Source of the DNA: Kayfunavirus LM33P1
Reading direction: 5' to 3' (one strand)
DNA: 38,979 nucleotides
Sequence record: OZ035813.1
Shown here: one piece after another, positions 2,610 through 29,670 of the stretch
Position numbering within the stretch: position 1 is the first letter of the stretch
Layout: each line of letters begins with the position of its first letter
Position numbers and translations under genes: made by a program
The notes under the pieces: generated by a model
What the model was told of the DNA's origin: nothing
What the model saw: only the letters and a program-made list of their open reading frames with translations
Databases searched by the model: none

Positions 2610-2656
2610 AACTATAGGTGAAAGCTGCATTAATAAGCAGCTAGTAACCTATAGTT
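2610..2656 (+). repeat. imperfect inverted repeat after the terminase gene
   Basis: AACTATAGG..AGCTGC ATTAATAA GCAGCT..CCTATAGTT; central 6-bp stem with 8-nt loop and outer 9-bp arms. Confidence 0.5.
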
Positions 2657-2693
2657 ACTACCAGTCTAACATACTGTTTTACAAGGAGTTTGG

Positions 2694-3164: not shown

Positions 3165-3205
3165 CTAAGGTCAGTTCATAGCTGACGCTACTCTACTGAC
3201 CTTAG
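3165..3205 (+). repeat. 10-bp perfect inverted repeat (CTAAGGTCAG / CTGACCTTAG) near the right genome end
   Basis: arms separated by 21 nt; non-coding context. Confidence 0.5.
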
Positions 3206-3368: not shown

Positions 3369-3580
3369 TCTCACACTTCAAGAACCTCAAGTCTCCCCAT
3401 AGGCCCTCTTTCAGTCCAGACCAAAGGCCCTACCCGTTACTGCTCCTTGCAGTCACAGCCAGTCTATCATAAGGTTGGACAGATGGTCAAGACTTAAGGT
3501 CAACGATAGGCTGAGGCTATGGCTTAGGGAAGGACGATAGGTTGGGACTATTGGTCTTCTTTGAGTCTCTATCTGTATAA
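3369..3580 (+). repeat. predicted direct terminal repeat / genome left end (collapsed single copy)
   Basis: begins TCTCACA like the T7 left end and ends GAGTCTCTATCTGTATAACC resembling the end of the T7 terminal repeat; boundaries approximate. Confidence 0.35.
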
Positions 3581-6208: not shown

Positions 6209-6231
6209 ACTTAACTATCACTATAGGACTC
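6209..6231 (+). promoter_or_regulatory. phage RNAP promoter immediately upstream of the RNAP gene
   Basis: ACTTAACTATCACTATAGGACTC; predicted +1 at 6226. Confidence 0.7.
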
Positions 6232-9529: not shown

Positions 9530-9552
9530 CCTAAACTATCACTATAGGATTA
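9530..9552 (+). promoter_or_regulatory. phage RNAP promoter (phi1.1-like)
   Basis: CCTAAACTATCACTATAGGATTA; +1 at 9547. Confidence 0.75.
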
Positions 9553-9595
9553 GACTCAAGGTCATGACTCAAAGTCGTGGCCTTCATGATTAACC
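9548..9595 (+). promoter_or_regulatory. RNase III-like processing hairpin (R1.1 position)
   Basis: same conserved core GACTCAAGGTCAT..GTGGCCTTCATG just downstream of promoter +1. Confidence 0.4.
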
Positions 9596-14479: not shown

Positions 14480-14558
14480 GTCTCCATAGCTCAAACGGTA
14501 GAGCGGCGGGTCGTGATGGCCTATTGCGATTAGGGTTCGAATCCCCGTGGAGACGCCA
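14480..14558 (+). tRNA. tRNA-like element with encoded CCA; anticodon arm irregular, identity unresolved
   Basis: 7-bp acceptor stem GTCTCCA/TGGAGAC, D-arm TAGCTCAAACGGTAGAGC, T-arm GGGTTCGAATCCC with canonical TTCGAAT loop, discriminator G then CCA; the segment between D and T arms (about 26 nt) does not fold into a clean 5-bp anticodon stem by eye. Confidence 0.4.
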
Positions 14559-16480: not shown

Positions 16481-16526
16481 GTCTAGACTCAAGGTCATTC
16501 ACATAGAGTGGCCTTTATGATTAGAC
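16481..16526 (+). promoter_or_regulatory. RNase III-like processing hairpin upstream of the DNA polymerase gene
   Basis: same conserved core with outer stem GTCTA/TAGAC. Confidence 0.4.
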
Positions 16527-16543
16527 TAAACGGAGGATTAACC

Positions 16544-20488: not shown

Positions 20489-20540
20489 GTCTAACCGATA
20501 GTCATATCCTATCAATCCAATAGTCATCCATAGGTGAAAC

Positions 20541-20563
20541 ACTAAACTATCACTATAGGGACT
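20541..20563 (+). promoter_or_regulatory. phage RNAP promoter (phi6.5-like)
   Basis: ACTAAACTATCACTATAGGGACT; +1 at 20558. Confidence 0.75.
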
Positions 20564-20624
20564 TTAGGACCTAAGATATGACTATAAGATAGACTTTAGT
20601 CTTAACTTAAAGAGGAGATTCAAG

Positions 20625-24490: not shown

Positions 24491-25540
24491 ATGGCAAACG
24501 TTCCGGGTCAGAAAGTTGGTACAGACCAAGGTAAAGGCAACTCTGGTTCCGACGCTCTGGCGTTGTTCCTGAAGGTATTTGCTGGCGAAGTCCTGACCGC
24601 ATTCACTCGCCGCTCTGTAACTGCTGACAAGCATATTGTCCGTACCATTCAGAACGGTAAGTCTGCTCAGTTCCCGGTCATGGGTCGCACCTCTGGTGTG
24701 TATCTGGCTCCGGGTGAGAGACTGTCCGATAAGCGTAAAGGTATCAAACATACCGAGAAAGTGATTACCATTGATGGTCTGCTGACTGCCGATGTGATGA
24801 TTTTCGACATTGAAGACGCGATGAACCACTATGACGTGGCTGGTGAGTATTCCAACCAGTTGGGTGAAGCTCTGGCTATCGCTGCCGATGGTGCGGTACT
24901 GGCTGAGATGGCTATTCTGTGTAACCTACCGGCTGCATCTGATGAAAACATCGCTGGTCTTGGCAAAGCGTCTGTGCTGGAAGTTGGTACTAAAGCAGAC
25001 CTGAACACTCCGGCTAAGCTGGGTGAAGCAATCATCGGTCAACTGACCATTGCTCGTGCGAAGCTGACATCCAACTACGTTCCTGCTGGCGACCGTTACT
25101 TCTACACCACGCCGGACAACTACTCTGCAATCCTCGCGGCTCTGATGCCGAACGCTGCTAACTATGCTGCGCTGATTGACCCAGAGACTGGTAACATCCG
25201 TAACGTAATGGGCTTCGTGGTTGTTGAAGTTCCACACTTGACTCAGGGTGGTGCTGGGGAAACTCGTGGTGCCGATGGTATCACTATTGCGACTGGTCAG
25301 AAGCACGCCTTCCCAGCTACTGCTACTGGTGATGTTAAAGTTGCTCTGGACAACGTTGTGGGCCTGTTCTCTCACCGTTCTGCTGTAGGTACTGTTAAGC
25401 TGCGTGACTTGGCGCTGGAACGTGACCGTGACGTCGATGCTCAGGGCGACCTGATTGTTGGTAAGTACGCTATGGGTCACGGTGGTCTGCGTCCAGAAGC
25501 AGCAGGCGCACTGGTTTTCACAGCGGCGTCAGCGGGTTAA
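24491..25540 (+). CDS. major capsid protein (gp10A)
   Basis: 349 aa; near-identity to T7 gp10A in many blocks (KHTEKVITIDGLLTADV, AILAALMPNAANYAALIDPE, RSAVGTVKLRDLALER, KYAMGHGGLRPEAAGA). Confidence 0.95.
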   Translation: MANVPGQKVGTDQGKGNSGSDALALFLKVFAGEVLTAFTRRSVTADKHIVRTIQNGKSAQFPVMGRTSGVYLAPGERLSDKRKGIKHTEKVITIDGLLTADVMIFDIEDAMNHYDVAGEYSNQLGEALAIAADGAVLAEMAILCNLPAASDENIAGLGKASVLEVGTKADLNTPAKLGEAIIGQLTIARAKLTSNYVPAGDRYFYTTPDNYSAILAALMPNAANYAALIDPETGNIRNVMGFVVVEVPHLTQGGAGETRGADGITIATGQKHAFPATATGDVKVALDNVVGLFSHRSAVGTVKLRDLALERDRDVDAQGDLIVGKYAMGHGGLRPEAAGALVFTAASAG

Positions 25541-25803: not shown

Positions 25804-25806
25804 TTG

Positions 25807-25846
25807 AAACCCCTTGGGTGCCTTCGGGTGCTTGAGGGGTTTTTTT
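25807..25846 (+). terminator. T-phi-like terminator after the capsid gene
   Basis: 13-bp GC-rich stem CCCCTTGGGTGCC/GGGTGCTTGAGGGG with TTCG tetraloop followed by T7 run; resembles T7 Tphi. Confidence 0.85.
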
Positions 25847-26765: not shown

Positions 26766-29123
26766 ATGCCGCTTATTACGCAAAGCATAAAAAATCTTAA
26801 GGGTGGCATTAGCCAACAGCCTGACATCCTGAGGTTCTCAGACCAAGGCGAGGCTCAAGTTAACTGCTGGTCATCCGAGAGTGATGGCCTCCAGAAGCGT
26901 CCACCTACAGTCTTCAAGCGACGTCTTAACATCGACGTTGGGAGCAACCCTAAGTTCCACCTGATTAACCGTGATGAGCAGGAGCAGTATTACATCGTGT
27001 TCAACGGGTCCAACATTCAGGTAGTCGACTTGAGCGGTAATCAATACTCAGTTTCAGGTGCGGTAGACTACGTTAAGTCGTCCAACCCGCGAGATGACAT
27101 CCGTGTCGTTACAGTTGCAGACTATACGTTCATCGTGAACCGTAAGGTTGTCGTTAACGGTGGAAGCGAGAAGTCACACTCTGGTTATAATCGTAAAGCT
27201 CGTGCTTTAATTAACCTGCGTGGTGGACAGTATGGTCGCACCCTTAAGGTAGGAATCAACGGAGGCGTTAAGGTTTCGCATAAGTTGCCAGCAGGTAATG
27301 ATGCCGAGAATGACCCTCCTAAGGTTGATGCTCAGGCTATCGGTGCAGCTCTGAGAGACCTTCTTGTTGCTGCTTACCCTACCTTCACGTTCGACCTTGG
27401 GTCTGGATTCCTGTTAATCACTGCCCCTTCAGGGACTGACATTAACTCAGTGGAGACGGAGGATGGCTACGCTAACCAGCTAATCAGCCCAGTACTCGAC
27501 ACGGTGCAAACAATCTCTAAGCTGCCTCTTGCAGCTCCAAATGGGTACATCATTAAGATTCAAGGTGAGACCAACAGTAGCGCCGATGAGTATTACGTGA
27601 TGTATGACTCCAACACTAAGACGTGGAAGGAGACAGTAGAGCCGGGAGTGGTCACTGGGTTCGATAACACCACAATGCCACATGCTCTGGTTAGACAATC
27701 TGACGGCTCCTTTGAGTTCAAGACTCTGGACTGGTCTAAGCGGGGTGCTGGTAATGATGACACAAACCCTATGCCTAGCTTCGTGGATGCTACGATTAAC
27801 GATGTGTTCTTCTACAGGAACAGGCTAGGGTTCTTGTCAGGAGAGAACGTAATCATGAGCCGTTCAGCCAGCTACTTTGCGTTCTTCCCTAAGAGTGTGG
27901 CGACATTGAGTGATGATGACCCTATTGACGTAGCTGTAAGTCACCCTAGAATCTCAATACTTAAGTATGCCGTTCCGTTTAGCGAGCAGCTACTACTTTG
28001 GTCAGATGAGGTGCAGTTCGTGATGACAAGCTCGGGGGTCCTTACCTCGAAGTCTATCCAGCTTGATGTAGGCTCAGAGTTTGCCTTAGGAGATAACGCC
28101 AGACCGTTCGCTGTAGGACGCTCAGTCTTCTTCTCAGCGCCTCGTGGATCATTCACCAGTATTAAGCGATACTTCGCTGTAGCAGATGTGTCTGACGTGA
28201 AGGATGCCGATGATACCACTGGTCACGTACTGTCCTATATCCCTAACGGGGTGTTTGACATTCAAGGTACAGGGACTGAGAACTACATCTGCGTCAACTC
28301 CACAGGTGCATACAACCGAATCTACATCTACAAGTTCTTGTTTAAGGACGGCGTACAACTTCAAGCCTCTTGGTCGCACTGGGAGTTCCCTAAAGCTGAT
28401 AAGATTCTGGCGTCTGCGTCGATTGGCTCTACCATGTTCATTGTTCGTCAGCACCAATGGGGTGTGGACATTGAGCACCTTAAGTTCATCAAGGAGGCAA
28501 CCGACTTTCCATTAGAGCCGTATAGACTCCACGTTGACTCTAAGGTGTCTATGGTAATCCCAATTGGCTCATATAACGCTGACACCTATGAGACTACGGT
28601 CGACATTGGTTCTGCTTATGGTGGAAACGCTCCGTCTCCCGGTCGGTACTATCTGATTGACAGTCAGGGTGCCTATGTGGACCTTGGTGAACTGACCAAC
28701 ATCTCAACTGTGGCTATACTCAATGGCGATTGGTCGGGACGTACAGTGTTCATCGGACGGTCTTATCTGATGTCCTACAAGTTCTCACGGTTCCTGATTA
28801 AGATTGAAGACGATAGTGGCACTCAGTCTGAAGACACTGGACGTCTACAGCTTCGTAGGGCTTGGGTCAACTACAAGGACACTGGCGCTCTTAGACTCAT
28901 TGTCAGAAACGGTGAGCGGGAGTTCGTGAACACCTTTAATGGGTACACCCTTGGTCAGCAACCCATCGGGACTACCAACATTGGGGACGGTCAGTATCGC
29001 TTCGCTATGAATGGTAACGCATTAACCACGAGTCTAACCTTAGAGTCAGACTATCCTACCCCAGTGTCCATCGTTGGGTGTGGCTGGGAGGCGTCATACG
29101 CTAAGAAAGCTCGTTCCGTCTAA
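26766..29123 (+). CDS. tail tubular protein B (gp12)
   Basis: 785 aa; ITQSIKNLKGGISQQPDILR, RNRLGFLSGEN, ILKYAVPFSEQLLLWSDE, GRLQLRRAWVNY match T7 gp12. Confidence 0.95.
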   Translation: MPLITQSIKNLKGGISQQPDILRFSDQGEAQVNCWSSESDGLQKRPPTVFKRRLNIDVGSNPKFHLINRDEQEQYYIVFNGSNIQVVDLSGNQYSVSGAVDYVKSSNPRDDIRVVTVADYTFIVNRKVVVNGGSEKSHSGYNRKARALINLRGGQYGRTLKVGINGGVKVSHKLPAGNDAENDPPKVDAQAIGAALRDLLVAAYPTFTFDLGSGFLLITAPSGTDINSVETEDGYANQLISPVLDTVQTISKLPLAAPNGYIIKIQGETNSSADEYYVMYDSNTKTWKETVEPGVVTGFDNTTMPHALVRQSDGSFEFKTLDWSKRGAGNDDTNPMPSFVDATINDVFFYRNRLGFLSGENVIMSRSASYFAFFPKSVATLSDDDPIDVAVSHPRISILKYAVPFSEQLLLWSDEVQFVMTSSGVLTSKSIQLDVGSEFALGDNARPFAVGRSVFFSAPRGSFTSIKRYFAVADVSDVKDADDTTGHVLSYIPNGVFDIQGTGTENYICVNSTGAYNRIYIYKFLFKDGVQLQASWSHWEFPKADKILASASIGSTMFIVRQHQWGVDIEHLKFIKEATDFPLEPYRLHVDSKVSMVIPIGSYNADTYETTVDIGSAYGGNAPSPGRYYLIDSQGAYVDLGELTNISTVAILNGDWSGRTVFIGRSYLMSYKFSRFLIKIEDDSGTQSEDTGRLQLRRAWVNYKDTGALRLIVRNGEREFVNTFNGYTLGQQPIGTTNIGDGQYRFAMNGNALTTSLTLESDYPTPVSIVGCGWEASYAKKARSV

Positions 29124-29130
29124 CTTATTG

Positions 29131-29180
29131 AAGGGCCTATAGATTTACCTTAACTATCACTATAGGGACTATAGGCCCTT
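29131..29180 (+). repeat. 12-bp perfect inverted repeat bracketing the phi13-like promoter
   Basis: AAGGGCCTATAG at 29131-29142 and CTATAGGCCCTT at 29169-29180. Confidence 0.6.
29148..29170 (+). promoter_or_regulatory. phage RNAP promoter (phi13-like)
   Basis: CCTTAACTATCACTATAGGGACT; +1 at 29165; bracketed by a 12-bp inverted repeat. Confidence 0.75.
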
Positions 29181-29199
29181 AAGGTTATAAGGAGACTTT

Positions 29200-29670
29200 A
29201 TGTATATTCGCAAGGCTACGGAACAGGATGTCCACTACTTTCTGTGGCATCTTTCAGCAGATGATGTTAATGAGTGCAAAGCAAACTACGGGTCAACCGT
29301 GGGTCTCTCAGAGAGACTGCTTAAGCATCTATCTCCGTCATCTGTGGTTTTAACGAACGGTGTAGGTGAAGTGTTTGCCTATGGTGGAAACCAAGGGGAT
29401 AACGTATGGTTCTTGACTTCGGGTCTGGTCCACAAGCTGAGACCTAAAGAGAAGCGAGAGTTCATAAAGCGTATCTCTGAGTACAGGGACTTAATGTTAG
29501 ACCAATACGGGACCATCTGGAACTACGTGTGGTCAGGCAATAAGTCTCACATTAAATTCTTGAAGTTGCTTGGGGCTAAGTTCCATGATGATTGGACTAT
29601 CAGCCCGGTAACTGGTGAGCATTTTCAATTATTCACTATCTCTAAGGAGGACGTATGTGTGAACCCGTAA
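29200..29670 (+). CDS. hypothetical protein at gene 13 position (possible internal virion/assembly protein)
   Basis: 156-aa ORF downstream of a phage promoter and upstream of gp14; assignment by position only. Confidence 0.6.
   Translation: MYIRKATEQDVHYFLWHLSADDVNECKANYGSTVGLSERLLKHLSPSSVVLTNGVGEVFAYGGNQGDNVWFLTSGLVHKLRPKEKREFIKRISEYRDLMLDQYGTIWNYVWSGNKSHIKFLKLLGAKFHDDWTISPVTGEHFQLFTISKEDVCVNP

Follow-up and report, generated by a model that had tools for sequence, protein, structure and literature searches.

A hairpin around the phi13-equivalent promoter of Escherichia phage LM33_P1 is a candidate counterpart of the RNase III site R13

Introduction

The closest described counterparts of the element analyzed here are the R13 sites of T7-type phages, which lie in the spacer between genes 12 and 13. 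In the T3 record (NC_003298), a stem-loop at 25443-25480 is annotated as 'RNase III recognition site R13' and overlaps the 'T3 promoter phi13' at 25457-25479. The same R13/phi13 arrangement is annotated in phiYeO3-12 (AJ251805), where R13 is termed 'putative'. The T3 R13 stem-loop folds into stems of 8 bp and 5 bp separated by a 2x2 loop (z = -5.8); its 3' arm is the promoter core itself (about -8 to +7), and G.U wobbles take part in the pairing.

In T7, R13 occupies the same position, and the read-through RNA is predicted to form a 15-bp plus 3-bp hairpin on phi13 (z = -4.4). The partner of the T7 arm is the promoter core, and an alternative fold with the promoter in the loop is much weaker (-15.2 vs -27.2 kcal/mol). 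Dunn and Studier are said to have placed R13 cleavage in T7, in 1983, a few nucleotides downstream of the phi13 start. The T7 records NC_001604, V01146 and AY264774 annotate phi13 and not R13 in the junction stretch, and a literature search on R13 returned T7 modelling and expression work only. Such work includes R13 in its lists of T7 RNase cleavage sites and calls the site weak (PMC6938266, PMC5592923).

RNase III has room for about 22 bp (PMC6212723). Its substrates typically comprise two helical turns, although coaxially stacked short helices may suffice, and internal loops confine cleavage to one strand, so that a protective 3' hairpin is left (PMC1540722).

Here we analyze the gene 12-13 junction of Escherichia phage LM33_P1 (Autographiviridae, Studiervirinae, Kayfunavirus; K1F-like). 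All coordinates refer to the window, i.e., the whole 38,979-bp complete genome, which is rotated relative to the GenBank record (window position = record position + 3376).

Results

The gene 12-13 junction of LM33_P1

The spacer between gene 12 and gene 13 is 76 nt long and contains a 12-bp inverted repeat on the plus strand, whose arms lie on both sides of a phage RNA polymerase promoter:

26766-29123, plus strand: gene 12 (tail tubular protein B), from the ORF list; 'tail protein' in RefSeq
29131-29142, plus strand: 5' arm of the repeat, AAGGGCCTATAG, promoter positions -34 to -23
29148-29170, plus strand: phage RNA polymerase promoter, phi13 equivalent, CCTTAACTATCACTATAGGGACT, positions -17 to +6 with +1 at G29165
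29169-29180, plus strand: 3' arm of the repeat, CTATAGGCCCTT, +5 to +16 of the phi13 transcript
29189-29194, plus strand: Shine-Dalgarno sequence AAGGAG of gene 13, read from the sequence, outside the 12-bp stem
29200-29670, plus strand: gene 13 (internal virion protein A), the first gene that the promoter serves, with its ATG at 29200

The core motif of the promoter, ATCACTATAGG, has 12 matches in the genome, where 0.63 are expected, and defines 11 promoter positions including the phi13 copy. A promoter at the gene 12-13 junction is also annotated in the Kayfunavirus records CR44b and ASO2B, the latter citing the K1F consensus (A/C)CTAAACTATCACTATAGGRAAA. A stem-loop or RNase III site is annotated at this junction in none of the LM33_P1, K1F, CR44b and ASO2B records.

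The sequence-only reading of this stretch had claimed a perfect 12-bp repeat flanking the promoter, and the geometry is exactly as described: the arms are 12 nt each, 100% complementary and 26 nt apart. No other perfect 12-bp inverted repeat with a loop of 3-60 nt exists in the whole 38,979-bp genome. The repeat by itself is nevertheless not significant, because 12.5% of dinucleotide shuffles of the genome hold at least one such repeat (mean 0.19 per shuffle). Moreover, the promoter core includes CTATAG, a self-complementary sequence, so that inverted repeats arise more easily near promoters; three CTATAG copies are found inside 40 nt at this locus. The signal beyond chance is the placement and conservation of the repeat, not the repeat alone.

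Predicted structure of the read-through RNA

The gene 12 stop codon (TAA, 29121-29123) lies just upstream of the 5' arm, and read-through transcripts reach the hairpin from gene 12. Folding of this RNA predicts a stable structure (-23.4 kcal/mol, z = -2.7), and within a 350-nt context pair probabilities along the 12-bp stem range from 0.63 to 1.0, most of them being 1.0. In the minimum free energy (MFE) fold of 29114-29202, the 12-bp stem is the middle one of three tiers, which together make up a composite hairpin of 5 + 12 + 5 = 22 bp. The tiers added to the stem are:

29121-29125, plus strand: 5' strand UAACU of an outer 5-bp helix, pairing with 29183-29187 in the MFE and centroid folds
29148-29167, plus strand: apical module, a 5-bp upper stem (CCUUA, 29148-29152, with UAGGG, 29163-29167) capped by a loop of 10 nt, in the MFE folds
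29183-29187, plus strand: 3' strand GGUUA of the outer helix, in the MFE fold

The outer helix takes in the gene 12 stop codon, and the apical module consists wholly of promoter sequence. Internal loops of 5x2 and 5x1 separate the outer helix from the 12-bp stem and the 12-bp stem from the upper stem, respectively. The folds, including those in the 350-nt context, thus predict what had been proposed from the letters alone, namely that read-through RNA from gene 12 forms a hairpin containing the promoter sequence. RNA initiated at G29165, which is without the 5' arm, folds into no comparable structure.

Among the 11 promoter copies, phi13 is the most strongly helix-enclosed one, with 18 expected enclosing base pairs (z = -2.7). 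The raw energy of the hairpin ranks only 343rd among 7782 windows of 70 nt, i.e., in the top ~4%. Pairing of the 5' arm with the promoter core yields just 7 bp and -8.5 kcal/mol, compared to -23.4 kcal/mol with the downstream arm, and this weak core pairing makes the LM33_P1 hairpin a variant layout of an R13-type signal. An Rfam scan of the whole window gave no family match at the repeat, its single match being a tRNA at 14480-14555.

In one fold, 29114-29117 form 4 bp with the gene 13 Shine-Dalgarno sequence, a pairing that we rejected because these upstream bases vary in relatives. Separately, 29181-29198 (plus strand) form a small hairpin, AAGGUU/GACUUU, whose loop presents the Shine-Dalgarno sequence of gene 13. 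Relatives retain this hairpin, with A-U pairs changed to G-U and despite an insertion of 10 nt in the loop.

Conservation in the K1F group

K1F has the 111-bp junction with 100% identity, and 122 of the 221 matching phage records have it with at least 99% identity. For a comparison of Kayfunavirus-type phages, 20 distinct junctions were collected from IMG/VR and metagenomes. Throughout these, the 9-bp core GGCCUAUAG/CUAUAGGCC is constant except for one A-to-G change, which leaves a G.U pair, and two apical breaks. The 9-nt core of the 5' arm, GGCCTATAG, is constant in the compared relatives, as are all 12 nt of the 3' arm in the 10 compared Kayfunavirus-type relatives; one metagenomic variant carries a T-to-C change at position 2 of the 3' arm. 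The core and the whole 3' arm remain 100% identical where the flanking coding DNA is just 61-70% identical to the window, and also in three lineages with a replaced promoter recognition region (-17 to -8). Positions -22 to -18 vary among relatives while the arm cores stay constant.

The outer three bases of the 5' arm are variable in relatives, indicating that only the K1F/LM33_P1 clade has the perfect 12 bp. In relatives whose inner stem is weaker (9-10 bp), the outer helix is stronger, UAACUUA/UAAGUUA. Compensatory double changes within Kayfunavirus were absent from the 20 distinct junctions, and a metagenome scan of 15 loci returned no compensatory variants.

This lack of compensatory changes within the genus is in line with a neutral by-product, in which a partial duplication of the promoter core (CTATAGGGA-CTATAGGCC) met a few matching upstream bases by chance. 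The frequency of such repeats in shuffled genomes, the three nearby CTATAG copies and the presence of a second CTATAGG-containing repeat at 2609/2647 fit this explanation as well. We regard it as improbable, since the arm cores are constant at a flank identity of 61-70%, despite the variable positions -22 to -18 and the swapped recognition region, and since a hairpin of its own occupies this position in every other lineage (see below).

As a separate observation, the recognition region in the Kayfunavirus-type loci L052, L054 and L057 (= L018, L021 and L024) reads ACACCCTCACTATAGGGA or AACACTCACTATAGGGA in place of AACTATCACTATAGGGA, with the flanking stem unchanged, which suggests a change of polymerase specificity within the group.

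Survey of gene 12-13 junctions across Studiervirinae

We retrieved 80 IMG/VR loci via gp13 alignment and took from each the stretch that begins at the gene 12 stop and ends at the gene 13 start, which gave 54 distinct junctions. All 54 are predicted to form a hairpin overlapping the promoter, with a median z of -3.8 and z < -2 in 91% of them. At least 8 expected base pairs connect the region upstream of -17 with the promoter core or the downstream region in 98% of the junctions. Every sampled lineage has a positional counterpart of the LM33_P1 hairpin, and the stem sequences are unrelated among the Kayfunavirus, T7-like, T3-like, KP32-like, Berlin-like and Ninurta-like lineages. The survey relied on per-sequence folding because a MAFFT alignment of T7-, T3- and KP32-type junctions, in which 2 of 11 pairs showed double changes, misaligned the inner stems. 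In the Berlin and 13a records, nothing at the gene 12-13 junction is annotated as an RNase III site.

The layouts of these hairpins differ. In T7-, T3- and KP32-like phages, the upstream arm is the RNA-level complement of the promoter core (about -10 to +7) and uses G.U wobbles, e.g., in the pairing of CCCUGUGGUG with CACUAUAGGG in T7-like phages. Berlin-like and Ninurta-like junctions combine an outer stem around the promoter with inner helices. The 3' arm of this outer stem starts at about +5 to +7 in the Berlinvirus-type and Dickeya phage Ninurta-type junctions, as in LM33_P1, but their stem sequences (CACCCC/GGGGUG and ACCCUAUG/CAUAGGGU) are unrelated to that of LM33_P1 and the extra inner helices pair with the promoter core. 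In Kayfunavirus, the stem only flanks the promoter. The arms of the sister lineage L020/L053 are capable of T7-style pairing, GUCCCCUAUGG with CUAUAGGGGAC, and the MFE fold chose otherwise. The overlap of a hairpin with phi13 is therefore conserved across Studiervirinae though the pairing partner has moved.

The G.U pairs without which related stems would lose their pairing, such as that of CCUGUAG in locus L041 besides the T7-like example, point to selection on RNA rather than on DNA, and they also indicate that the upstream arm is not an antisense copy of the promoter. This bears on the suggestion, made in the sequence-only reading, that the repeat is in DNA a cruciform-capable palindrome. 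A DNA-level element that tunes the firing of the promoter, either as a cruciform or by binding a dimeric protein, would agree with arms that are perfect as DNA and placed almost symmetrically around the polymerase-contacted region (-17 to +6), and with a single-strand DNA fold of -11.4 kcal/mol (z = -3.5). However, a spacer of 26 nt strongly disfavours cruciform extrusion, and cruciform palindromes have short spacers or none. The counterparts in other genera are imperfect as DNA palindromes and become perfect as RNA through G.U pairs, and one Kayfunavirus variant has a G.U substitution. We also know of no candidate binding protein for the repeat. We consequently consider a role at the DNA level very unlikely and have dropped the cruciform as a function.

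Comparison with R13 of T3 and T7

The hairpins of LM33_P1, T3 and phiYeO3-12 share their location in the gene 12-13 spacer, their strand and their overlap with the promoter. T3 R13 and the LM33_P1 hairpin have a tiered shape in common (lower stem, internal loop, upper stem), and both can be formed by read-through RNA only. The two differ in that LM33_P1 has a separate 3' arm at +5 to +16, the promoter in an apical position and a 12-bp stem made up entirely of Watson-Crick pairs.

Measured against R13-type signals in general, the predicted 22-bp fold of LM33_P1 comprises about two helical turns with internal loops, lies in the spacer on the transcribed strand and overlaps promoter phi13. Use of the promoter core as the 3' arm, which characterizes the T7, T3 and KP32-like sites, is not seen in LM33_P1. 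The T3 and phiYeO3-12 annotations and the recognized weak site of T7 thus back the earlier suggestion that this is a candidate site at the R13 position, as the positional counterpart of R13.

Comparison with canonical RNase III-type hairpins and terminators of the same genome

LM33_P1 also contains canonical T7-type RNase III-like hairpins, at window positions ~296-340, 9549-9595 and 16482-16528 (plus strand), with others near 6228 and 24399. They share the consensus UAGACUCAAGGUCAU...GUGGCCUUUAUGAUUA, which motif search and folds place at 301, 9554 and 16487; when up to one mismatch is allowed, the motif ACTCAAGGTC is found at 22 places, compared to 3.2 expected. The same motif search and folds did not find the consensus UAGACUCAAGGUCAU...GUGGCCUUUAUGAUUA at 29131-29180. 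The phi13 hairpin resembles the canonical sites in being intercistronic, spanning about two helical turns, containing an internal loop and lying on the transcribed strand. In contrast, the canonical sites have an upper stem of 9-11 bp with a 3' bulge and a strong consensus, both of which the phi13 hairpin lacks. It therefore fits a weak or atypical RNase III site.

The same features could be read as a selected RNA structure that acts without RNase III, either as a barrier to 3'-to-5' exonucleases that protects the gene 12 mRNA or as an insulator, which might act between termination of gene 12 and initiation of gene 13. The evidence for a conserved RNA structure applies to this reading equally, the hairpin is without the canonical RNase III consensus of this phage, and R13 of T7 is weakly cleaved. 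On the other hand, the curated annotation of T3 and phiYeO3-12 and the T7 literature assign the counterpart to RNase III, the composite length of 22 bp suits this enzyme, and a pure exonuclease barrier would have no need to overlap the promoter in every lineage. We therefore regard a role independent of RNase III as rather unlikely.

The sequence-only reading had also offered an attenuator. A stable hairpin in the nascent read-through RNA could in principle attenuate or terminate read-through phage or host RNA polymerase, and stem-loops in nascent RNA are likewise part of intrinsic and T-phi-type terminators. Unlike those, the phi13 hairpin has no U-run, its loop is long (26 nt) and its stem is AT-rich at the top. 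The sequence past the stem, CCCUUAAGGUUAUAAGG, contains no T/U-run, and a terminator scan found no terminator-like site at the repeat and no T-run after 29180. In addition, genes 13-17 need read-through in T7-type phages, and the real T-phi-like terminator of this genome (~25806-25846) looks very different, with a GC-rich 17-bp stem and U7. Attenuation at this site is hardly credible, and we abandoned it.

This T-phi-like terminator (plus strand) has a predicted energy of -31.4 kcal/mol in a 70-nt window and, by T7 gene order, probably follows the capsid gene.

Discussion

Based on the predicted fold, its conservation and the analogy to T3, phiYeO3-12 and T7, we favor the reading that the repeat encodes a hairpin specific to read-through RNA, the K1F-group counterpart of R13, which is putatively cut by host RNase III (probability about 0.6). 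The LM33_P1 element would then most likely be a known and expected kind of signal, and what is new would be its layout with the promoter in the apical part.

For the LM33_P1 hairpin, we infer RNase III cleavage, its position and its effect on mRNA stability, and the proposed course of events is as follows. Transcripts that start at upstream promoters and pass the T-phi-like terminator would form the hairpin, in which the arms pair (12 bp) and may stack with the outer 5-bp helix and the promoter-made 5-bp upper stem to give about 22 bp, or two turns. Host RNase III would cut the hairpin in this read-through RNA and thereby separate the messages. A protective 3' hairpin would remain at the end of the gene 10-12 message. 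The message from gene 13 onward would begin with a 5'-monophosphate, at most a few nucleotides away from the start site of the promoter itself. RNA initiated at the promoter (from G29165) is without the 5' arm, so that it cannot form the hairpin and would escape cleavage.

A more far-reaching interpretation, which we consider unlikely at present, is that the hairpin serves the whole subfamily as a means of sorting two populations of gene 13-17 mRNAs that are identical in other respects. Read-through RNA would be cut and carry a 5'-monophosphate, promoter-initiated RNA would stay uncut with a 5'-triphosphate, and the two mRNA classes would differ in stability or translation. Under this interpretation, the 3' arm was moved downstream of +1 in Kayfunavirus, probably through a duplicated promoter core, and the move would free the promoter from pairing constraints and turn it into an excisable apical module.

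If the RNase III reading is confirmed, an R13 processing signal joins the annotation of K1F-like phages. These phages are used in therapy and as engineering chassis, and swapping promoters or editing near the gene 12/13 junction could disrupt the hairpin inadvertently, although the practical relevance is modest.

Other elements of the genome

Three further repeats were noted in the window. An 11-bp inverted repeat, TAACTATAGGT/ACCTATAGTTA, at 2609-2619 / 2647-2657 (plus strand) is built around CTATAGG, like the phi13 repeat, and encloses a second 6-bp hairpin. It lies just past a large ORF ending at 2599, which from T7 gene order is probably gene 19, and upstream of the promoter copy at 2692-2714. 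A further perfect inverted repeat of 11 bp, whose loop measures 19 nt, is located at 3165-3175 / 3195-3205 (plus strand), near the physical right end of the genome (the record end corresponds to window position 3376). The promoter copy at 20549 (window ~20522-20595, plus strand) is flanked by an 8-bp inverted repeat, ATAGTCAT/ATGACTAT, and its initially transcribed sequence, GGGACTTTAGGACC, resembles GGGACTATAGGCCC of the phi13 copy; the fold around it is not significant alone (z = -1.3).

A tRNA-like gene at 14480-14558 (plus strand) is detected by Rfam (tRNA, 36.7 bits) and by ARAGORN (tRNA-Thr, anticodon CGT), and is unannotated in RefSeq NC_031937. It occupies the spacer that separates gene 3.5 (amidase) from gene 4 (primase/helicase), where a promoter copy precedes it by ~50 nt, and is present in just ~33 Kayfunavirus records, a few of which label it tRNA-Thr or tRNA-OTHER.
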